A DNA stretch of 64,000 nt, taken from the NCBI GenBank assembly GCA_938004185.1, contig CALKWN010000065.1, forward strand, positions 90,371 to 154,370. The letters are read 5' to 3'. Origin of the DNA: an uncultured candidate division WWE3 bacterium. GTDB taxonomy: Bacteria; Patescibacteriota; WWE3; UBA101185; UBA10185. Both the position numbers and the translations under genes were made by a program. Under the pieces are notes generated by a model. It was not told where the DNA came from. It worked only from the letters and a program-made list of their open reading frames with translations, and did no database searches. This document shows positions 24,193-62,435 of the stretch, in pieces. Every line of letters begins with the position of its first letter. The first letter of the stretch is position 1.

Positions 24193-27100
24193 TTAATCCC
24201 CGAACCTTATTGCCCCACCCTCGTTGTACAAAACTCTTATCAGATGATCGGTTAAAGGTGCGTTATGTATGGTAACTTCATCAATCTGGCCGTCAAAATA
24301 TCCTGAACCTGCAGAATCTCGGCCGATGTTTAGTGCGGTAGAACTTAGAACAGTAACGGAATCTGTTTCCTCTTGGGTGTCTTCTAAAGTTCCATTTACG
24401 TAAATTTTAATATTTGCTCCGTCGTACGTGCACATTATGTGTGTCCAACTGCTTGCAGTCAGAGAACTTGTAGCTACAGCTGGGGTTTGATAAGTGCCGC
24501 TGGAATATATCTCACATTGCGGATTACCCGACGCATTTGTTGTAAGCTTAAATTCACCAGGTTTATGAATCAGCGTATCAGAGGCTGGAGAGGAATCAGG
24601 ATTAAACCAAGCACCGTAAGAAATGTTGCTGTAGCTAATCCCGTTTGCATGGAACAAGGGTGAGGTGGAACCTACTAGATAGTCATCAACACCGTCAAAA
24701 TCCAGACTTCCGTTAAACTTACCTTCTTTACCTCCGTACCACATCTCCCCAGACGATCCCTCGCAAGTGCCGACAGTAGTATTTCCCGATGACTGTGGGT
24801 AGATTGTTAAATCAATACCAACGGAGGTATCGTCAGAAGATCTACCAGAGTTGTGGGCCGTGCTTCCCGAACACTCATTAAATTTATAGTAGTACTTAGG
24901 TGCAATTCTGTTATATTCCCAAGCTATTTGTGCTTGAGTTCTGGTGTAGTCATAAAGTTTTACATTATCCATGGTTCCGTAAAAATAGCTGGATGCTGCG
25001 GGGGCGTTGGAACCAAAATATAACGGCATATTAGAATTTAGAATTACTCCAGAAGCACCGGTTGCGGGTGCGTGGGACAGTTCCTTATTTAAGTAAGCGT
25101 ATAGAACTGTACCATCTCTAACTAGAGCAAAGTGATACCACTTGTCTGTTGTAATTGAGAGCGTGTTGATAGTTGTATTTGACGACGCCCTCGAAGACGC
25201 GACCCACCTACATTCTATTATGTCGGTGGTAGTTATATAGCATAGATAGCTACTATAAGGATCTGTATTGTCAGATTTTACAAAGAGGTAGTATGTATTA
25301 CCCGCATCCGAAGGTAGTTGGTCAAGTTTAAACCACATCGATACGGTAATACCGTTTACAGGTGTAAGAAGATCGTTATCAGGAACGTTGGTATAGTCGT
25401 TTGTTCCGTCAAAAGCTAACCCACCACCGTTTTTCCCTGTATCCCATGTAGGATCGTTTGTGGCTGGAGAAGATGTATCTCCTAACATACCGAACAAATT
25501 GTTAGCACCGCTATCGTAAAACAATTGCCCTGACATCTCGTCCATTCTCCACTCTGCTACCGGTGGGCTACACGCAGCCGTATCCCCTGGAACACAATAC
25601 ATTCGGTCATACGAATTGCTGGGTGTTACCCCATCACTTTCAGTAGACAAAGCACCCCACTGCGATGTCTTGCCCTGATTCAACAAAACATTCGCCTCGC
25701 CCTGATTAATTTCATAATTAAAAATCGTAACCTCATCAATTGAACCCACAAACTTTCCTGTGTAGTCGTCTCCCCGGCCCCCGATAACAAGGGTGTTGTC
25801 TCCGTCGATACTGCCTGTTGCCGTAAGGTTTGTATTTGAATCGTTAAGTACGCCATCAATGTAAAGGTCAATTTGACTTGTCCCTATTTTTACAGCTGTT
25901 ACACTATGCCACTGGCCGTCGTACACGTCATCATCGCTGGAAACTGTGTCATCAGGTGACCATGTCGAGTCATCGTCAATTCCAAAGATTATGTTTCCTC
26001 CGGAGTTGAAATACAGCGCATACCCTGCGGTTGAGTTTCCACCACGACCAAGTACATACTCGGTACTTGAGGGGTTTGAGGAGGAGTCGGACTTAAACCA
26101 CATGTTTATGGCAAAGCTTTCGTCGTCAAAGACAAAGGCATTGTCATCTACATATGCGTAGTTTGTTCCCCCGTCATAAAATGCTTTATTAAATTTACCT
26201 GAAGTGGTAAATGCTGTGGCAGATGGAGGTGAGGCAACAAGTGTCAGGTTTCGGGAGTTTCCTGTTCGGTCGTAAATTGTTGTGCCTCCGTTTTCGTCGA
26301 ATCTATAGTGAGCGATTGGTGCACCAAGGGTTGAATCGGGTGCTGGGATTTGAGCGTCAAGATCTTTTGTCACTTGTTTTACATCAGGTGCGTATGAATA
26401 TATTTTGAAGTCGTCGAGGCGTCCCTCAAAGTTTTCGCCGGATCCGCCTTCCATTTGAGAGCCGTATGTTTTGCCGAGGAGAAGTGGTTTGTCTTCGGAG
26501 GCGAGTGAAAATGGAGTTGCGTTAGTAGTTGTATTTTCAAGGACACCGTTGACGTAGATTTTTAAATCGGAGCCGTCGAATGTTCCGGAGAGGTGATACC
26601 AGGTGTCTGCGGTCCAGGAGGAGGTGGTTGACGCAACACTAACATCAGATGTGTTCCCATATTTTGCAATTTGATTTACAGTCGTCCCCCCTGCTGTGGT
26701 AAAGGCTCCCCCCACATACAAATACCCGTTATACACACTCAAGGTACGGACCTGATTATTTGTCCCCACAGTAGCCCCTCCTATGGGGAGGCAGGTATCA
26801 GTTGAATCATCGTACTTTGCAATATTATTTACAGTTGTTCCTTCTGATGTGGTACCAGAAAAACCCACATACAAATACCCGTTATATGCTGCGAAAGCAT
26901 AGGTATCGGAGATATCTCCATCGTTTCCACCACATATGGCACTAATTGTATCCGTACTATCATTATATCTTGCAACTCTATTTCCATGGCTTGTAAAGCT
27001 TCCACCTAAATACAAATATCCGTTGTATTCTCCTAATGCGTAAATATAGCCACTTGTACCGGTTGCTCCCGCTATAGCACTGAAGGTATTAGTACTACCA

Positions 27101-30100
27101 TCATATTTTGCAATGTTTCCTGTAGCAGTGCCACCCGCAGAGGAAAAATCACCGGCCAAATACAAGTACCCTTTATATACTGTAAGAGCATAAACTTCTG
27201 CTGAAGCCGGAAAACCTATAGATACCCCCACAGTAGCTCCACCAATAGCAGAGAAGGTATCAGTACCATCATCATATTTTGCTATTCTGTTTACAGTCGT
27301 CCCCCCTGCTGTGGTAAAGTCTCCTCCCAAATACAAATACCCGTTATACACACTCAAGGTACGGACCTGACCATTTGTCCCCACAGTAGCACCGCCTATT
27401 GCACTAAATGTATCTGTTTCATCATCATATTTTGCAATGTAATTTACAGTCGTCCCCCCGGCTGTGGTAAAACTTCCTCCCACATACAAGTGCCCATTAT
27501 ATGCTGCGAGGGACCAGACAATACTACTTGTCCCCACAGTAGCTCCACCAATAGCAGAGAAGGTATCAGTACTATCATCATATTTTGCAATGTTATTTAC
27601 AGTCGTCCCCCCTGCTGTGGTAAATTCTCCCCCCACATACAAATACCCGTTATATACTGCTAGGGCGTGGACCCAATAACTTGTCCCCACCGTCCCCCCA
27701 CCCAACGCACTAAAAGCCTTCGCCGTCGCATCATTCACCACCCACTTCGCTTTCCCATCCGACTTATCCAAAAAGAACTGATAGTCACCCTTATCAACAA
27801 TGCCTTGGTTATAGTCCGCACCGGTAGAAAACTCCTCACCCATCTGCACCCACCCCGAAACAGCAACTCCCGCCTCGGGCGAAATGTACGCACTGCTGTC
27901 TGTGGTAACAAAATCATCAACTCCGTCAAAAGTCGCGCCCGTCCCATACCTTCCCGGAGCCCACGAGGCGCCGTTTGTTAAGGTTCCGGTGAGCTGGTTT
28001 CCGCTCGAGTCGTGTGCGGAAGTTTCTGTGTTTTCTTCAAATTTATAGTAAAGGTCGGGTGGAGGTGAGTGCTGATACAAACTATATATTTCGGAATCGG
28101 AGAGCGCCGTATTGTATATGCGCAAGTCGTCGATAAGTCCGTCGAAGGACTCGTCGGATCCGCCGGCCATTTGCGACCCGTAGGTCTTGCCGATGAGGAG
28201 GTCTCTGTTGTTGGTCGCGAGGGTAAAGGGCGTGGAGTTGGTGGTTGTGCTTTCCAGCACGCCGTTGACGTAGATTTTTAGGTTGGTTCCGTCGAATGTT
28301 GAGGCGAGGTGGTACCAGGTGTCGGGTGTCCAGGTTGAGGTTGAGGTGGAGACGGCGGCGGGGGTGTCGGAAGATGAGCCGTATTTCGCAATTCCATTTA
28401 CAGTCGTCCCCCCGGCTGTTGTCACATGATATCCCCCCAAATACAAATACTCGTCATATACCGCCAAGACTCTAACATGGGGGTCAGTGTTGCCTACCCC
28501 CACAGTAGCCCCACCGATGGCAGAGAAGGTATCAGTACTATCATCATATTTTGCAATTTTATTTACAGTTGTCCCCCCCGCTGCCGAAAACTCCCCCCCG
28601 AGATACAAATATCCTTCATACACTGCTAAGGAGTGGACGGAATAAGTTGCCCCCACAGTAGCTCCACCAATAGCAGAAAAGGTATCAGTACTATCATCAT
28701 ATTTTGCAATATTATTTACAGTCGTCCCTCCTGCCGCTGTCATATCATGTCCCCCTACATACAGATATCCGTTATATACCGCTAGGGATGAGCCCGCGAC
28801 GTATGATCCGCCACTAATTCCTACAGTGGCACCCCCTATTGCAGAAAAGGTATTAGTACTATCATCATATTTTGCAATGTAATTTACAGTCGTCCCCCCC
28901 GCTGTGGCAGTAAAATTTCCCCCTAAATACAAATGTCCGTTATATACTGCTAAGACTCTGACTGTAGGAGGGTCAGCTCCCGGCTCGAAGAGGCCGGGAC
29001 TAGCCCCACCAATGGCAGAGAAGGTATCAGTAACATCATCATATTTTGCAATTCCATTTACAGTCGTCCCCCCTGCTGTAAAAATATCTCCCCCAGCATA
29101 CAAATGTCCGTTATACACTGCCAAGGCATAGACAGAACCACTTGTCCCCACAGTAGCTCCACCAATGGCAGAGAAGGTATCAGTAACATCATCATATTTT
29201 GCAATGTAATTTACAGTCGTCCCCCCTGCTGCGGTAAATTGTCCCCCCACATATAAATACCCGTTATACACTGCCAAGGCATAGACAGAAACACTTGTCC
29301 CCACAGTAGCTCCACCAATGGCAGAGAAGGTATCAGTAACATCATCATATTTTGCAATGTAATTTACAGTCGTCCCCCCTGCTGTGGCAAAGCTCCCTCC
29401 CAAATATAAATACCCTTTATACACTGCCAAGGCATAGACAGAATCACTTGTCCCCACAGTAGCTCCACCTATAGCACTAAACACCTTCGCCGTCGCATCA
29501 TTAACCACCCACTTCGCCTCCCCACCAGACTTATCAAGATAGAACTGGTAGTCCCCTTTATCAACAATTCCCTGGTTGTAGTCTGCGCCTGTTGAAAACT
29601 CTTCATCCATTTGTACCCATCCTGAAACCGTAACCTCATTAGATACAGATAAAGATGGTGAGCTTCCCGCGTTAAGGTAGTCTGTCGTTCCGTCATATGA
29701 AGTAGCTCCCCCGTAAACTCCCCTATCCCACGCCACATCCTCATTTAGAGTTGCATCGTTATCAAACCCTGAAGAATCTGTTGCAGTAGCTCCCGTTGCG
29801 TCATCCATTTTCCAATAGGCAACAAGCCCGTCTGTAGTGTAGCTTGTATGATCATTTCCAAATGCAGCCGACGTCCCGTGCAAGGTGGGAGAGTAGCGGA
29901 TAATATCTGTTTGAAGCTCTGTGAAAGATCTTTCCTCTGCGTAAATTTTGAATTCATCAATATATCCGTCAAAGCGGTTTGAGGCTGAAGTTCCCCCGAT
30001 AGTTAGTGTATTTGTTTCTGTCGCCGGAGCTCCGTCTCCGTTTGTACTTGTTCCCATAAGAACCCCGTCAACATAAATTGAAATCTCATCATCCGAATCA

Positions 30101-32910
30101 TCTTTGTATGTTAATGCTATGTGGTGCCACTGCCCTAATGTTATTGCATCATCAACCGTTATGGTCGCATCCGTCGTTCCAAGATCTATTGAGGCAACAA
30201 TATCGGCGACCGAAGAATCACTTCCCGCGCCGAGCCTTAAATAGCTTGAAGTCCCTTTTTGAAAAATTGCACCCGCACTTCCCTCCCCTGCAGACAAAGG
30301 ACGTATCCAAGCCTGAACGGTAAACTCATCATTTAACTTCTCTCCGAAATTTACGGATTCGTGGTCATCAATTCGTAACATGTCGTTTACCCCGTCAAAG
30401 AGAATACACCCGTTTGATACACAGTAGTCATTTGATGCTACCCATGTGGGATATGTTAGTGTAGGTAAAGTTTCAAGAGCTATTTTTCCAAGTATTGCAG
30501 ATGAATATATGTCGCTATTATTAGTGGTTGCCACAACATCTACCGTTTGTGCCGAGCTTGGAGCTGAAATTGCCGTAGTTATTGCGTAATTTGAAGGCGT
30601 AAGAGTTGAATTTGAAATATCACTTGGTGAGCTATTCGGGTCAGTCTGTAGTTTTATTGAAGATGAGCTTGACGCAGCTCCCGCCGCCTCGTGATAGTAT
30701 GTAGTTGAGGCGTCGTTTCCTATTTCATCAGGGTCAAAGTATGTGTCAAAGTTTTGAGGTGCTGTCCCCGATGACAAAAGTGTGTTGGCCACAAGGTATC
30801 TTGACTCTGTTTTTGTTATTACCGTTCCCGTTTGGGTAGCAACTACCTTGGCGTTATATATATCATAAGTATTTGCAGCGTTACTTACCGAACCCACTAT
30901 TCTGTAGTGTCTTCCGTCTGTAGGTGTAAATGAGACTCTTGTTCTTGTTGGTGTGGTTACACTTGAAACAGCGTTGACTATTGTTTGTTTGTCTGTCCAT
31001 GAACCGAACGAGCCGTTGTCTTCCTGAAGTTTTATTGTAACGGTGTATGTGGTAACAATGGAGTCATATGTTATTTTTATTTGTCCTGGTCGGCCCGGAC
31101 CACCGCTTCTGTTTCTTGATGCTCCTGAACCATCTTTATCTCCTGCACCACCGCCACCACCGCCCGGACCTGTTGCGGGTGCAGAACCATTTGTACCGGT
31201 CGAACCTCCATTACCTCCCGGCCCTCCGTCAGTCACCGCTGTAGCTCCTGTTTGTCCTGTAGCATCGTTTCCGTCAGACGAAGGACCTGCAGATCCGCCA
31301 CCGCCTCCTCCGGTGGAAGCATTATTATCCGCCCCATCACCACCGTTATATTTCGTAGTACCGTTACTTGCCGCAGCGGATCCTCCCGCACCTGGAGAAC
31401 CGCCTTCGGATCCGCCCCCGCCCCCTCCCTTGACATTTACACCCGAAGTATCGAAGGATGAGTCGCCTCCCACACCGCCATTACCGGTGCCTGCTGAGCC
31501 ACCCGCACCTACTGTGTAAGAAAAATTACCGGGACATGACAACGATACAGTGCTGGCTGCATAAGCGCCACCACCACCACCCGCTCCCGCTACCGAGTTA
31601 TCTGTAGTATCCCCACCTCCTGCACCGCCACCTCCCCACGCCTCAACATAAATGTTTGATGCTGTTGAAGGACAGCTCCAACTGTATGTTCCCGCGGTTG
31701 TAAAAGTTTCGGTAGTTGAAGAAGCATCCCCCAGAATCTTCTTCCAACTAACCTCTGCCGAAAAAGTTGTTGTTCCGTCCCAGTTGTCGTCATCGTACTT
31801 CCAATATTTAGGGTAATTTAAGGCTGCTGCTGTAGTATTAGACTTTCCGACCTCGTAATTTCCAAGCTCGATTTGAGCTTCAGTTGCAGTCATTGGTTCC
31901 TCGCCAACATTCTGTATTACTATTATTCTCGCGGACTTAACCTCAGGCGAAGTTCCCCCCGACAAGTTTATATTGTATTCCGTCTCCCCCGCAGGGGGTG
32001 TAAATGCAGTACCTCTTTTTCTGGTAAAGTCAGTTTCAGTAACGGTTACGGTCGTATCCTGCGTTGCAGTACCCGACCTCTCAAGTGCCACCGTCAAAGT
32101 GCCGGATGAAACTTTTGCCACCACCTCAAAATAGTAAGTCTTTGTTCCGCTGTAATTATCCGTGTCGAGCAGCACCAAAGAAGGATCGTCCCCCGACGCC
32201 GTTGCTATATGGTCAATAATATTTATCTCCCGCCGTATTACCTGATCCTGTGTCATTTCTCCCCCAAACGCTGCGTCGTTTAAATTAGATGTTGAATCGT
32301 GGGCAACTAATCCGTACGCCTCATCCATCTTCAAATACACCGAAGGCGAAGGACCTATTTCAATACTTCCAAGGGTTGGTGTACCGCCCGAAGGCGTTAA
32401 GCCGGAAACGGAAGACACCGTACCATCAGTAGTCGAGTGCGCCGTCGGGTTTGAATAATACATAAAAATATTATTTCCCCCGCTTGTTACGCTTGTCAGT
32501 ACAACATCAAATACCGTAGAAGAAGTATTACATCCCGAAACCACGGTGTATTTTAAAAGATCTCCGCCTATTGTGGTAAAAATCACATCATCACAGTCTT
32601 CCTGCATCTTTCCGTCTGCAATAAGTGAGGCGGTATCAACCGTAATACTTACTCTGCTGTCTGTTGAAACATCCGCATTATGTGTAAAAGATACTTTTTG
32701 CCTTTCGTTATACGCGTCATCGTACCAATCGGCTTTTACCCTTGTTGCTTCAAGTATTGAATATATTGTTACGGGAATTGCGACAGCCAAAAAAGCCAGC
32801 ATTATTTTTTTTCTGGATTTCCTGTCGCGTAAAGCAAGAACAAGCTTGTTTTTTGTCTTGTAGATTACCTGAATATTGTCTTTTAGGCGCAGTTTTTCGA
32901 GGGCATTCAT
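24193..32910 (-). CDS. giant membrane-anchored surface protein (2905 aa) with a Gly-rich region, multiple LamG-like domains and two propeller-like repeat arrays
   Basis: Single uninterrupted ORF. N-terminal TM (MLAFLAVAIPVTIYSIL). At least six LamG motifs (WYHLASTFDG..LKIYVNGVL...FDGLIDDLRIYNTALS and variants). ~15 tandem ~50-aa units (TDTFSAIGGATVGTS.SVYALAVYNGYLYVGG.FTTAGGTTVN.IAKYDD). Confidence 0.85.
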   Translation of the reverse strand: MNALEKLRLKDNIQVIYKTKNKLVLALRDRKSRKKIMLAFLAVAIPVTIYSILEATRVKADWYDDAYNERQKVSFTHNADVSTDSRVSITVDTASLIADGKMQEDCDDVIFTTIGGDLLKYTVVSGCNTSSTVFDVVLTSVTSGGNNIFMYYSNPTAHSTTDGTVSSVSGLTPSGGTPTLGSIEIGPSPSVYLKMDEAYGLVAHDSTSNLNDAAFGGEMTQDQVIRREINIIDHIATASGDDPSLVLLDTDNYSGTKTYYFEVVAKVSSGTLTVALERSGTATQDTTVTVTETDFTRKRGTAFTPPAGETEYNINLSGGTSPEVKSARIIVIQNVGEEPMTATEAQIELGNYEVGKSNTTAAALNYPKYWKYDDDNWDGTTTFSAEVSWKKILGDASSTTETFTTAGTYSWSCPSTASNIYVEAWGGGGAGGGDTTDNSVAGAGGGGGAYAASTVSLSCPGNFSYTVGAGGSAGTGNGGVGGDSSFDTSGVNVKGGGGGGSEGGSPGAGGSAAASNGTTKYNGGDGADNNASTGGGGGGSAGPSSDGNDATGQTGATAVTDGGPGGNGGSTGTNGSAPATGPGGGGGGAGDKDGSGASRNRSGGPGRPGQIKITYDSIVTTYTVTIKLQEDNGSFGSWTDKQTIVNAVSSVTTPTRTRVSFTPTDGRHYRIVGSVSNAANTYDIYNAKVVATQTGTVITKTESRYLVANTLLSSGTAPQNFDTYFDPDEIGNDASTTYYHEAAGAASSSSSIKLQTDPNSSPSDISNSTLTPSNYAITTAISAPSSAQTVDVVATTNNSDIYSSAILGKIALETLPTLTYPTWVASNDYCVSNGCILFDGVNDMLRIDDHESVNFGEKLNDEFTVQAWIRPLSAGEGSAGAIFQKGTSSYLRLGAGSDSSVADIVASIDLGTTDATITVDDAITLGQWHHIALTYKDDSDDEISIYVDGVLMGTSTNGDGAPATETNTLTIGGTSASNRFDGYIDEFKIYAEERSFTELQTDIIRYSPTLHGTSAAFGNDHTSYTTDGLVAYWKMDDATGATATDSSGFDNDATLNEDVAWDRGVYGGATSYDGTTDYLNAGSSPSLSVSNEVTVSGWVQMDEEFSTGADYNQGIVDKGDYQFYLDKSGGEAKWVVNDATAKVFSAIGGATVGTSDSVYALAVYKGYLYLGGSFATAGGTTVNYIAKYDDVTDTFSAIGGATVGTSVSVYALAVYNGYLYVGGQFTAAGGTTVNYIAKYDDVTDTFSAIGGATVGTSGSVYALAVYNGHLYAGGDIFTAGGTTVNGIAKYDDVTDTFSAIGGASPGLFEPGADPPTVRVLAVYNGHLYLGGNFTATAGGTTVNYIAKYDDSTNTFSAIGGATVGISGGSYVAGSSLAVYNGYLYVGGHDMTAAGGTTVNNIAKYDDSTDTFSAIGGATVGATYSVHSLAVYEGYLYLGGEFSAAGGTTVNKIAKYDDSTDTFSAIGGATVGVGNTDPHVRVLAVYDEYLYLGGYHVTTAGGTTVNGIAKYGSSSDTPAAVSTSTSTWTPDTWYHLASTFDGTNLKIYVNGVLESTTTNSTPFTLATNNRDLLIGKTYGSQMAGGSDESFDGLIDDLRIYNTALSDSEIYSLYQHSPPPDLYYKFEENTETSAHDSSGNQLTGTLTNGASWAPGRYGTGATFDGVDDFVTTDSSAYISPEAGVAVSGWVQMGEEFSTGADYNQGIVDKGDYQFFLDKSDGKAKWVVNDATAKAFSALGGGTVGTSYWVHALAVYNGYLYVGGEFTTAGGTTVNNIAKYDDSTDTFSAIGGATVGTSSIVWSLAAYNGHLYVGGSFTTAGGTTVNYIAKYDDETDTFSAIGGATVGTNGQVRTLSVYNGYLYLGGDFTTAGGTTVNRIAKYDDGTDTFSAIGGATVGVSIGFPASAEVYALTVYKGYLYLAGDFSSAGGTATGNIAKYDGSTNTFSAIAGATGTSGYIYALGEYNGYLYLGGSFTSHGNRVARYNDSTDTISAICGGNDGDISDTYAFAAYNGYLYVGFSGTTSEGTTVNNIAKYDDSTDTCLPIGGATVGTNNQVRTLSVYNGYLYVGGAFTTAGGTTVNQIAKYGNTSDVSVASTTSSWTADTWYHLSGTFDGSDLKIYVNGVLENTTTNATPFSLASEDKPLLLGKTYGSQMEGGSGENFEGRLDDFKIYSYAPDVKQVTKDLDAQIPAPDSTLGAPIAHYRFDENGGTTIYDRTGNSRNLTLVASPPSATAFTTSGKFNKAFYDGGTNYAYVDDNAFVFDDESFAINMWFKSDSSSNPSSTEYVLGRGGNSTAGYALYFNSGGNIIFGIDDDSTWSPDDTVSSDDDVYDGQWHSVTAVKIGTSQIDLYIDGVLNDSNTNLTATGSIDGDNTLVIGGRGDDYTGKFVGSIDEVTIFNYEINQGEANVLLNQGKTSQWGALSTESDGVTPSNSYDRMYCVPGDTAACSPPVAEWRMDEMSGQLFYDSGANNLFGMLGDTSSPATNDPTWDTGKNGGGLAFDGTNDYTNVPDNDLLTPVNGITVSMWFKLDQLPSDAGNTYYLFVKSDNTDPYSSYLCYITTTDIIECRWVASSRASSNTTINTLSITTDKWYHFALVRDGTVLYAYLNKELSHAPATGASGVILNSNMPLYFGSNAPAASSYFYGTMDNVKLYDYTRTQAQIAWEYNRIAPKYYYKFNECSGSTAHNSGRSSDDTSVGIDLTIYPQSSGNTTVGTCEGSSGEMWYGGKEGKFNGSLDFDGVDDYLVGSTSPLFHANGISYSNISYGAWFNPDSSPASDTLIHKPGEFKLTTNASGNPQCEIYSSGTYQTPAVATSSLTASSWTHIMCTYDGANIKIYVNGTLEDTQEETDSVTVLSSTALNIGRDSAGSGYFDGQIDEVTIHNAPLTDHLIRVLYNEGGAIRFGD
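26630..27720 (-). repeat. intragenic tandem repeat array 2 (8 units of ~150 bp)
   Basis: Same repeat family as array 1. Separated from it by a LamG-like segment. Confidence 0.8.
28375..29500 (-). repeat. intragenic tandem repeat array 1 (7 units of ~150 bp)
   Basis: Recurring near-identical DNA strings (atcatcatattttgcaat...tttacagtcgtcccccctgctg) spaced ~150-160 bp apart. Confidence 0.8.
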
Positions 32911-46991: not shown

Positions 46992-47038
46992 AGTAATAAC
47001 ATGTTATAACATGTGGAGATTTAAGTCAATTGTATTAT

Positions 47039-47059
47039 TGGTGGGCGAGAGAGGACTCG
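47039..47059 (-). repeat. 21-nt direct repeat of the tRNA-Leu(TAG) 3-prime end (T-loop C56 to CCA), att-like
   Basis: tggtgggcgagagaggactcg is identical at 47039-47059 and 47220-47240. Confidence 0.8.
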
Positions 47060-47162
47060 GTCACGTGTCTCAACATCTTGTAGTTCGCTAGCGCTCGCAC
47101 AATCTGTAAAGCTCGCGACCCCGTCTCCTTCGCTACGCTCAGTCCGACATTCTCGTCCTCTC

Positions 47163-47214
47163 TCAAAATAAAAAGTTCCCGCTAACCTTTCGTAAACTCA
47201 AGGCTAACGGGAAC
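47163..47214 (-). terminator. candidate intrinsic terminator downstream of tRNA-Leu(TAG)
   Basis: Minus-strand hairpin GTTCCCG...CGGGAAC with inner GCCUU/AAGGU pairing, followed by UUUUUAUUUU. Confidence 0.45.
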
Positions 47215-47219
47215 TTTCA

Positions 47220-47304
47220 TGGTGGGCGAGAGAGGACTCGAACCTCCAATCCTTTCGGAACACGGTTCTAAGCCGTGCGCGTATGCCAGTTCCGCCACTC
47301 GCCC
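47220..47304 (-). tRNA. tRNA-Leu (anticodon TAG), type II with long variable arm, CCA encoded
   Basis: Manual fold: GGGCGAG acceptor, CACGG-CTTAGAA-CCGTG anticodon arm, long variable arm, GGAGG-TTCGAGT-CCTCT T-arm. Confidence 0.85.
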
Positions 47305-47379
47305 ATGTAACTCTATTTTCTTATTTGTTTTTAAATCTGCTTTTTTCGTCCGCACGTCTTACGCCCTGTCGGTCCAAAA

Positions 47380-47413
47380 CCGTGCGCGTATGCCAGTTCC
47401 GCCACTCGCCCAT
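47380..47413 (-). repeat. 34-nt duplicate of the tRNA-Leu(TAG) 5-prime half (positions 1-31 plus 3 nt upstream)
   Basis: ccgtgcgcgtatgccagttccgccactcgcccatg matches exactly, located 76 bp on the 5-prime side of the intact gene. Confidence 0.75.
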
Positions 47414-47520
47414 GCAACTACCCCCTCACTCAAGCGCTAACATATTATACCAACAGAACACTCAACTTCTAGCAAAAAGAAAGGGCGGTTATTAAACCGC
47501 CCTTCCCCACTAATATTCAA

Positions 47521-62241: not shown

Positions 62242-62266
62242 TATCTGGCGCCCCCGGAGGGAGTCG
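62242..62266 (-). repeat. 25-nt direct repeat of the tRNA-Arg(TCT) 3-prime end (T-loop to CCA plus 3-4 nt), att-like
   Basis: tatctggcgcccccggagggagtcg is identical at 62242-62266 and 62356-62380. Confidence 0.8.
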
Positions 62267-62359
62267 GTCACCGGTTCGCGCCTGCTGACGCGCCCGTCGA
62301 CCCCGGCTCGGCACCGTCGTGCCTACGCCGTTCGACTCTGAAAAATACCTAACAATATC

Positions 62360-62435
62360 TGGCGCCCCCGGAGGGAGTCGAACCCCCAACCTCTTCCTTA
62401 GAAGGGAATTGCTCTATCCTTTGAGCTACGAGGGC
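62360..62435 (-). tRNA. tRNA-Arg (anticodon TCT), CCA encoded
   Basis: Manual fold: GCCCTCG acceptor, (A)TTCC-CTTCTAA-GGAAG anticodon arm with one mismatch, GGGGG-TTCGACT-CCCTC T-arm. Confidence 0.8.

Follow-up and report, generated by a model that had tools for sequence, protein, structure and literature searches.

The window analysed here, the whole 64-kb stretch of DNA from a candidate division WWE3 bacterium (its sequence matches that of a 649-kb contig, ENA ERZ724101, and of NCBI GCA_036824375.1 without difference, and one of its proteins has homologues that bear the name of WWE3, a CPR lineage), contains two tRNA genes that are each followed, on the same strand, by a small structured element ending in a copy of the gene's own 3' end. 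The element linked to tRNA-Leu(TAG) starts 54 nt past the gene, beyond a spacer with a long hairpin. The element linked to tRNA-Arg(TCT) begins 13 nt past its gene, and tRNA-Leu(TAA) lies 24 nt downstream of it. The features are given below together with the helices (P1 to P3) and junctions (J1/2 and J2/3) of the predicted fold; element scores are those of the model R1, built from members of the family.

47039..47165, minus strand: Leu-linked element, type A, whole unit, 127 nt (R1 model, 61.9 bits, E=2.7e-14)
47039..47059, minus strand: tRNA-derived tail of the Leu element, C56 to CCA (exact 21-nt repeat), comprising the P1 3' strand (47046-47059) and an unpaired 3' tail (47039-47045)
47060..47119, minus strand: P3, with base GUCGCG/CGUGAC containing a near-invariant G-U pair, and a long variable apex
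47120..47122, minus strand: junction J2/3, GGG (a motif imposed by the search pattern)
47123..47148, minus strand: P2, with base GUC/GAC, internal loop GGA/GA and a small hairpin with GCGUAGC
47149..47151, minus strand: junction J1/2, AAU, both A at least 96% conserved in the family
47152..47165, minus strand: P1 5' strand, U-GAGAGAGGAC (complementary to tRNA positions 59-69) followed by GAG
47166..47219, minus strand: spacer with a long terminator-like hairpin, then UUUUUAUUUU on the minus strand (repeat search; energy scan)
47220..47304, minus strand: tRNA-Leu(TAG), complete, CCA encoded (ARAGORN; Rfam tRNA, 54.8 bits)
62246..62346, minus strand: Arg-linked element, type B, its P1 5' strand ending in UCGAA (R1 model, 91.2 bits, E about 1e-22)
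62360..62435, minus strand: tRNA-Arg(TCT) (ARAGORN; Rfam tRNA)

The last 21 nt of tRNA-Leu(TAG), which read C56 through CCA on the tRNA strand, are the source of the direct repeat TGGTGGGCGAGAGAGGACTCG, found without mismatch at 47220-47240 in the gene and at 47039-47059 in the element; recurrence of one given 21-mer within 64 kb is expected by chance only about 3e-8 times. This exact copy had been described in the original prediction, along with several other properties of the segment that we also find. It is a discrete element whose ends are made of tRNA-derived sequence, and it folds, with a minimum free energy of -47.5 kcal/mol (z=-3.1 relative to shuffles). The 10-bp inverted repeat GAGAGAGGAC / GTCCTCTCTC is present at 47047-47056 and 47155-47164; taken alone it is unremarkable, because further 10-nt inverted repeats are present in the same 1.5 kb around the element, and it acquires meaning only through covariation in the family. 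The terminator hairpin proposed after tRNA-Leu has arms at 47172-47189 and 47200-47217 that are 89% complementary, a 10-nt loop, and a T-run behind it, with an energy of about -26 kcal/mol (-26.3). An automatic terminator scan did not call this hairpin, and our guess at the cause is an 8-nt limit on loop length. The spacer that contains it is 100% conserved in three other loci (L022, L051, and L125). The GC richness of the segment was somewhat overstated: the unit with its tail has 56.7% GC vs. 41% in the window, and its body without the tail (106 nt) has 55%, although this does place the unit in the top 1% of 127-nt windows. The toxin-antitoxin genes that flank the element had been read as a Doc/Phd module; the Fic/Doc toxin (PF02661) is there, but the antitoxin is of the MazE/AbrB type (PF04014), not of the Phd family.

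The sole ORF listed inside the insert is a 43-codon frame with a TTG start (47035-47166). We regard it as probably not a gene; it overlaps the covarying stems described below, and no support for it was seen. A degenerate 50-nt 5' fragment of tRNA-Leu lies 107 nt upstream, and a short-word blast search with the 57-nt spacer beside this fragment (47313-47369) found no relative anywhere.

At the Arg locus, the tail (62246-62266) matches the tRNA-Arg 3' end at 21 of 21 nt, and the repeat as a whole is 25 nt long (62242-62266 = 62356-62380), with 4 nt running past the CCA. The junction between body and tail, GTGAC/CGA, is the same as in the Leu element. Thus, the claim that the same T-loop junction occurs at tRNA-Arg holds more strongly than it was made, except that the copy ends at 62246, not at 62247. 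The body of the Arg element has about 70-73% GC, and it has the motifs GCGTAG, CGGGGTCG, and GCGAAC in common with the Leu body, as well as the predicted three-way junction. R1 scores both elements over its full length (model positions 1-102); with filters off, it detects no further copy in the rest of the 64-kb window.

The end of tRNA-Leu is also the site of a mobile element in other strains of the same species. In L022, L023, and other strains, a 7.58-kb element is inserted exactly where the gene ends. Its genes include those for a large serine recombinase of 519 aa and a REP_ORF2-G2P replication protein, and the 8-bp repeat on either side of it, GCCCACCA, is its crossover. It is located between tRNA-Leu and the insert, and to the right of it both hairpin and insert match the window at 100% identity; thus, the insert is neither part of the 7.58-kb element nor disturbed by it. 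The right junction, AATG/GCCCACCA/TGAAAG, is also found in L016, L051, and L125. The Leu-linked element itself is present in all same-species strains examined, and no insertion polymorphism was caught.

Range and fold of the element family

A genome-wide search for the junction had been proposed with the original prediction; a scan across the genomes of many species found further copies. The pattern, derived from the two window copies (GGGGTCG, 22-52 nt, GTGACCGANTCC, 11 nt, CCA), was scanned against one genome per species, and at least 118 genome loci match it, vs. about 9 expected by chance according to our estimate; at least 120 metagenome loci match as well. The genome matches listed are almost all from Patescibacteria/CPR (Saccharibacteria, Paceibacteria, WWE3, Berkelbacteria, Peregrinibacteria, and others), and they also include Elusimicrobia and a few Burkholderiales MAGs; Acidovorax, Bordetella, and Burkholderiaceae MAGs (L052, L029, and L109) are among the sources of hits. 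In 77 of the 125 genome pattern hits, the identical 18-nt tail is found again no more than 700 nt upstream; with few exceptions this second copy belongs to a called tRNA gene of the same orientation, and the usual distance is 100-220 nt. In family members, which are roughly 100-150 nt in size, the last 18-21 nt are the 3' end of the upstream tRNA or tmRNA; this segment begins in the T-loop (C56/R57), takes in the discriminator, and in most cases includes CCA. Elements beside tRNAs with a TTCAAGT T-loop carry CAAGT; thus, position 57 is copied and the junction lies at T-loop position 55/56. At least 17 tRNA species are represented, and one copy follows a tmRNA gene (L105). Both window elements are members of a large family of small structured elements that lie downstream of tRNA or tmRNA genes and end in a copy of the gene's 3' end.

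Tandem arrays of these elements occur in six loci (L072, L077, L123, L053, L088, and L107), and in three others the copies are orphans or lie kilobases from their tRNA (L026, L069, and L090). Approximately 40% of the tRNA genes in the sampled loci carry an element, a figure biased by the choice of loci for having one. A terminator-like hairpin with a T-run is found between the tRNA and the element in about half of 114 copies and after the element in about a quarter. In viral contigs, a degenerate 26-nt tail pattern had no match, and the general pattern had 32 matches; none of these passes the R1 model, so we regard them as chance matches. A blastn search of phage and plasmid collections with the Arg element returned no match.

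The R1 model was built from an alignment of 34 short-form copies. Read 5' to 3', a family member starts with the P1 strand, complementary to tRNA positions from 56 or 59 up to 63-69, followed by AA(A/U). P2 has a GNC/GNC base, an internal loop of G-S-A vs. G-A, and a variable hairpin, and is followed by GGG; P3, which leads into the tRNA-derived tail, has a GUCG/UGAC base that includes a G-U pair, together with an A-rich bulge, and its loop is often CAGCAG. Two types of P1 can be distinguished. In type A, to which the Leu copy in the window belongs, the strand ends in GAGAA, with two G-A mismatches opposite G57 and A58; in type B, which includes the Arg copy, it ends in UCGAA and is fully paired. 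In the Leu element, GAGAGAGGAC followed by GAGAA stands opposite GUCCUCUCUC, and its GAG faces A58, G57, and C56, forming the two G-A mismatches and one G-C pair.

The paired columns of this alignment covary. In the 34 copies, 83.5% of the cells are paired, vs. 67.2% after shuffling, and covariation is 0.415 vs. 0.128, a value reached by none of 500 shuffles; in controls with the partner slid by 1-3 columns, it is 0.06-0.09. The P1 pair at tRNA position 59 is CG in 9 copies, UA in 9, AU in 7, and GC in 6. An independent metagenome set of 79 model hits gave 88.2% paired cells vs. 65.3% and covariation of 0.535 vs. 0.151, with slid controls at or below 0.10; this second alignment was fitted to R1, which biases it toward the structure. 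In this set, the middle pair of the P2 base covaries (CG 29, GC 24, AU 11, UA 4). G-U and U-G pairs (152) are far more numerous than A-C and C-A pairs (36), and one G-U pair is nearly invariant; this excess indicates that it is the tRNA-sense strand that folds, which points to RNA. The tRNA-sense strand thus forms a three-way junction: pairing in P1 joins the 5' end to the tRNA-derived segment, and the conserved core consists of P2 and P3. In most copies, 7-13 nt of the tail are predicted to be single stranded. We also compared the junction by eye with the K-turn, the hammerhead, and HDV-like junctions and rejected these readings, as loop sizes and strand topology do not fit.

Relation to known systems

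Rfam, searched over the whole window at gathering thresholds, identifies six tRNAs and nothing else. In permissive scans of the two window elements, the best match was RtT, which scores 18.6 bits on the Leu element (threshold, 45 bits). Neither known self-cleaving ribozymes nor other Rfam families came near their gathering scores, and in eight family loci no family other than tRNA was found over the elements at E<=0.1.

RtT (RF00391), which models the repeat at tyrT, represents the E. coli tRNA-linked repeats (TLRs), which also include rttR and the rrA/rrB/rrF small RNAs. TLRs were first described in 1978 and are known in 22 copies at ten loci in E. coli; they are defined by their position immediately downstream of tRNA or rRNA genes, with operon and orientation shared, and by their last 18-19 nt, which are the gene's 3' end (PMC8144298). 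They are transcribed by terminator read-through and then processed, and a role as a 3' processing signal has been suggested (PMC8144298). Both window elements have the position, the orientation, and the 3' identity that define TLRs, with 21 nt of tail identity vs. 18-19 nt in E. coli. Like the window elements, TLRs have an outer helix that joins the 5' end to the tRNA-derived segment. Their 5' module is also alike: units at the E. coli tyrT locus contain GGGGAAGGAT, the complement of tRNA-Tyr positions 59-68, followed by GAGAA, and end in a 19-nt tRNA tail. This is the arrangement of the Leu element, the Arg element having the UCGAA variant. Tandem arrays and a terminator that often stands between gene and repeat are further likenesses (PMC8144298). 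The alignment of RtT with the Leu element is full length and takes in GGAYGAGAA, GAGCGWAGCGA, and the outer helix.

The cores, however, differ. The CPR family has a P2 with GNC/GNC, the GGG, a P3 with GUCG/UGAC, and the junction GUGAC/C56, whereas the units in E. coli are of greater length, differ in their internal hairpins, and are joined at A58. No 5S-linked copies were seen among the CPR family matches. For E. coli rrA/B/F, binding of Hfq and CsrA has been reported. The outer helix and GAGAA are found in the window, but the RtT gathering score of 45 bits is not reached; the RtT model has no hit on the Arg element, and R1 has none on the E. coli tyrT locus even at E<=10. Because RtT is far below its threshold and R1 misses tyrT, these comparisons support a common design with E. 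coli TLRs but do not extend to common descent. Within the R1 family, both window copies have a significant full-length score and a tRNA 3'-end tail joined at position 55/56. We therefore file the window elements as the same kind of element as E. coli TLRs, forming a new and much larger variant family.

Two other known systems bear comparison. The attL/attR repeats of tRNA-integrating islands and of cis-mobilizable, CIME-like remnants likewise are direct repeats of a tRNA 3' end from the T-loop, and the Leu locus hosts a real integrative element in other strains. In contrast to these, the window element is small and of constant size, has a covarying core, occurs in many lineages, has a 5' strand that complements the repeat, and comes with no recombinase gene or remnant. 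RNAs of the 3'ETS-leuZ type are by-products of tRNA-operon transcripts that are freed by tRNA-processing nucleases (PMC8144298). Their proposed likeness is that they too are small RNAs from tRNA transcripts; however, they do not form a repeated family and have neither a copy of the tRNA 3' end nor a complementary strand.

Tail ends, turnover, and explanations

In the genome scan, at least 19 copies end in CCA although the adjacent tRNA gene has no encoded CCA, an excess that is biased because the pattern demanded CCA. In the metagenome scan, which did not demand it, tRNA genes with CCA are followed by elements with CCA in 16 of 18 cases, and tRNA genes without CCA in 7 of 21. The remaining elements at CCA-less genes have CAA, CTA, CCT, or similar triplets, and the flanks of the tRNA genes themselves are alike. 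Judging from these sequences, elements and tRNA genes alike seem to retain, at their ends, an ancestral encoded CCA in various states of decay. Drift affects the 3 nt at the CCA position, but the 18 nt ahead of them remain identical, which shows that the tail is kept the same as the tRNA by selection or gene conversion. In several copies, the repeat runs past the tRNA end (4 nt at the window tRNA-Arg and 7-8 nt in L154 and L159), and this continuation into flanking DNA indicates copying at the DNA level.

The presence of the element differs between related species. In a related WWE3 locus (L266), gene order is kept at 75% protein identity, with tRNA-Arg(TCT), a MazG gene, and tRNA-Leu(TAA), and the element is absent at tRNA-Arg(TCT). 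Three of the four relatives compared at the Arg locus have no synteny (L263-L265, L268) and are uninformative, so that this comparison rests on L266/L267. The original prediction had asked for a comparison with relatives: presence does vary between related species, but every same-species strain examined has the Leu element. In the orthologous Leu elements of L051 and L125, P1, the junction, and P2 are as in the window, and the P3 apex is replaced by one that resembles elements at other tRNAs in other genomes (L073 and L089). Moreover, cores located at different tRNAs are more similar within a genome than between genomes (0.73 vs. 0.63, p=5e-6). Thus, the family turns over, by gene conversion or some form of spread.

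The explanation that we favour, at a probability of roughly 0.6, is that the element is a small RNA, co-transcribed and resembling a tRNA at its 3' end, and that recombination underlies the turnover of its family. The element would work as an RNA made together with its tRNA. The transcript would arise by read-through of the hairpin at the Leu locus, and as the RNA that separates two tRNAs at the Arg locus. Nucleases that process tRNA would release the element, and its tail, identical to that of the tRNA, would direct the same 3'-end maturation as in the tRNA, as proposed for E. coli TLRs. The outcome would be a stable small RNA produced in step with transcription of the tRNA. The 18-21-nt repeats could serve as substrates for unequal recombination and gene conversion, which would explain the tandem arrays, the swapping of cores, and the gain and loss among relatives. 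Two properties of the elements count against such an RNA: the strong terminator-like hairpin that follows tRNA-Leu may restrict the element to low levels, and the predicted 7-13-nt single-stranded tail might be removed by exonucleases. Nor does a role as processing signal account for the need of the P1 5' strand to match each tRNA, or for the way in which guide and tail would be adapted to a new tRNA.

This gap keeps alive the alternative of a MITE-like, nonautonomous mobile element, which would target the T-loop and 3' end of tRNA genes, duplicate its target, and have its core recognised by an enzyme supplied in trans. On the one hand, the elements are multicopy and always occupy the same sublocation of the tRNA with the identical junction GTGAC/C56; one core subfamily follows different tRNAs across genomes, and different subfamilies follow the same tRNA. 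The differences in presence between related species, the greater likeness of cores within a genome, and the orphan or distant copies (L026, L069, and L090) are also what a mobile element would leave. On the other hand, no transposase, integrase, or reverse transcriptase stood out beside the elements in the gene tables examined, all 32 viral pattern matches fail the model, and the phage and plasmid collections have no matches. A 21-bp target duplication combined with an internal strand complementary to the target fits no known transposition chemistry, the G-U bias and the conserved junction nucleotides look like those of a selected RNA, and no polymorphism was seen among the same-species strains examined, every one of which has the Leu element. 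Compared with MITEs, the inverted repeat is specific to each tRNA and not common to all copies, the "duplication" is 18-21 nt long, most copies follow tRNA or tmRNA genes with few orphans, and no transposase has been identified; turnover, as in a mobile family, is seen. On balance, we consider a mobile origin unlikely, while taking it seriously.

Three other origins are far less probable. The original prediction offered, beside a MITE-like element, an att-like scar or a degraded integration hotspot. On such a reading, an island or prophage with a T-loop integrase was deleted down to about 160 bp, the distal repeat being the displaced tRNA 3' end. Williams reportedly described, in 2002, the T-loop-to-CCA direct repeat left by tyrosine integrases that use the T-loop sublocation, and the repeat in the window resembles this footprint; the tRNA-Leu locus is a real integration site, with its 7.6-kb serine-recombinase element in other strains, and the 50-nt 5' tRNA fragment upstream would suit such a history. 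However, the family data already contradict this reading: the same size, core, and covarying stems occur after many tRNA species in many lineages, as random deletion remnants would not; a 5' strand complementary to the tail is unexpected in an attR; the real mobile element has a different 8-bp crossover and leaves the insert untouched; and there is no integrase remnant, just the 43-codon ORF. We therefore regard a scar as very improbable. A decayed tandem duplicate of the tRNA that keeps only its 3' end is more improbable still. Tandem tRNA duplications are common, and the degenerate 5' tRNA-Leu fragment could be read in the same way; but neither ARAGORN nor the Rfam tRNA model recognises a tRNA in the body, position 55/56 is the boundary in every case, and the same non-tRNA core follows unrelated tRNAs and a tmRNA, a shared core that already contradicts this origin. 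An RNA-templated tail, either reverse transcribed from mature tRNA or derived from a tRNA 3' fragment captured by a ribozyme and copied into DNA, would account for the 19 or more pattern-selected copies that have CCA beside CCA-less genes. The tRNA segment copied at retroviral primer-binding sites is 18-21 nt, the same length as the tail counted from the T-loop. Yet only 7 of 21 elements at CCA-less genes have CCA when it is not demanded, the repeat extends into flanking DNA (4 nt at Arg; 7-8 nt in L154 and L159), and there is no reverse transcriptase in the gene tables of the window's own locus, so that we hold this origin to be highly doubtful.

A more speculative idea concerns what the elements would do. 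They might be a previously undescribed, widespread class of structured RNA "addressed" to its own tRNA by a strand complementary to the 3' strand of the T-arm and acceptor, with a spare copy of that 3' strand, and acting on the tRNA or its gene. We put this forward as a tentative suggestion that we consider unlikely; candidate roles would be a regulator of, or decoy for, tRNA 3'-end enzymes, a catalytic RNA that exchanges tRNA 3' ends, and an RNA-guided mobile element. If it were true, E. coli TLRs would belong to this class as a branch that has diverged.

The E. coli copies are too few and too similar to each other for comparative analysis. In CPR/Patescibacteria, elements built to this design around another conserved core are frequent, and some other lineages have them as well; such numbers of copies are notable given the tiny, streamlined genomes of these organisms. 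In annotation, repeats of this kind can pass for the att sites that mark genomic islands. A covariance model and a supported secondary structure are now available for the family, as are rules, namely, that the junction lies at position 55/56 and that the 5' strand and the tail track the tRNA. With these in hand, the old question of what tRNA-linked repeats do becomes testable.

An integrative element and a gene fragment at tRNA-Leu(TAG)

The 3' end of tRNA-Leu(TAG) is the insertion site of an integrative element, which is carried by some strains of the window's species and also occurs in other Patescibacteria MAGs. In every case, the insertion separates the tRNA from its linked element, the structured repeat that ends in a copy of the tRNA 3' end.

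Features at and around tRNA-Leu(TAG), in the window unless a comparison locus (L) is named
L022:7125-14704, integrative element of 7.58 kb, inserted at the tRNA-Leu(TAG) 3' end
47370-47419, minus, partial copy (50 nt, 5' part) of tRNA-Leu(TAG), 92% identical
47313-47369, minus, 57-nt spacer between this fragment and the gene
47001-47029, minus, sigma-70-like promoter match, TTGACT-17 nt-TAACAT

The 7.58-kb element is flanked on both sides by the 8-bp repeat GCCCACCA and encodes a large serine recombinase (519 aa), whose called ORF runs antisense across the tRNA, together with a REP_ORF2-G2P replication protein. It is also present in L023 and L002-L007, and its right junction was found in L016, L051, and L125.

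The tRNA-Leu(TAG) fragment comprises positions 1-42 plus 8 nt of upstream sequence and has a changed anticodon loop; the real gene lies 107 nt downstream. A search for relatives of the spacer by short-word blast found none. The 107-nt duplication is absent from the strains with the 7.6-kb element (L022 and others), which have an intact tRNA-Leu where the window has the fragment.

On the other side of the Leu-linked element, the promoter match starts 10 nt past the element's CCA and precedes the MazE/Doc operon; therefore, judging from sequence, the toxin-antitoxin genes may be transcribed as a unit of their own, separate from the element.

Variation at the Leu and Arg loci and in base composition

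Orthologues of the Leu-linked element were found at L051:1188-1386 and L125:3960-4163. Their P1, junction, and P2 are identical to those of the window copy, whereas the P3 apex is wholly different from window positions 47060-47119. The L125 apex matches the apices of elements beside other tRNAs in other genomes (L073 and L089), and this pattern suggests exchange among paralogous element copies. At the orthologous Arg locus of a related WWE3 genome, a MazG-family gene stands where the window has the Arg-linked element.

L266:1892-2394, orthologous cluster tRNA-Arg(TCT), MazG-family gene (109 aa), tRNA-Leu(TAA)

Elsewhere in the window, positions 26000-32000 have a GC content of 0.47-0.48 versus 0.41, with several patches of 60-68% GC; Rfam detected no family at threshold over this stretch.

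Example parts of the raised-GC stretch
27657-28425
31083-31654

Other linked repeats and the encoded CCA

A family element was also detected downstream of a tmRNA gene (L105:1-452; Rfam tmRNA, 55 bits). The tail of this element seems to repeat the 3' end of the tmRNA, and the tail of L119 is almost identical to it. A second, distinct class of tRNA-linked repeat, not recognised by R1 (the covariance model of the family), occurs in L024, L054, L083, L092, and L128, with GTAAG..., GTAGT..., or GTAAT... rather than GTGAC ahead of the tRNA 3'-end copy and CAA or CAT after it.

Across the Patescibacteria family loci (L024-L262), many tRNA genes do not encode CCA; their discriminator is followed instead by CAA or by some other variant with a single mismatch. 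From these sequences, the encoded CCA looks to be decaying lineage-wide.
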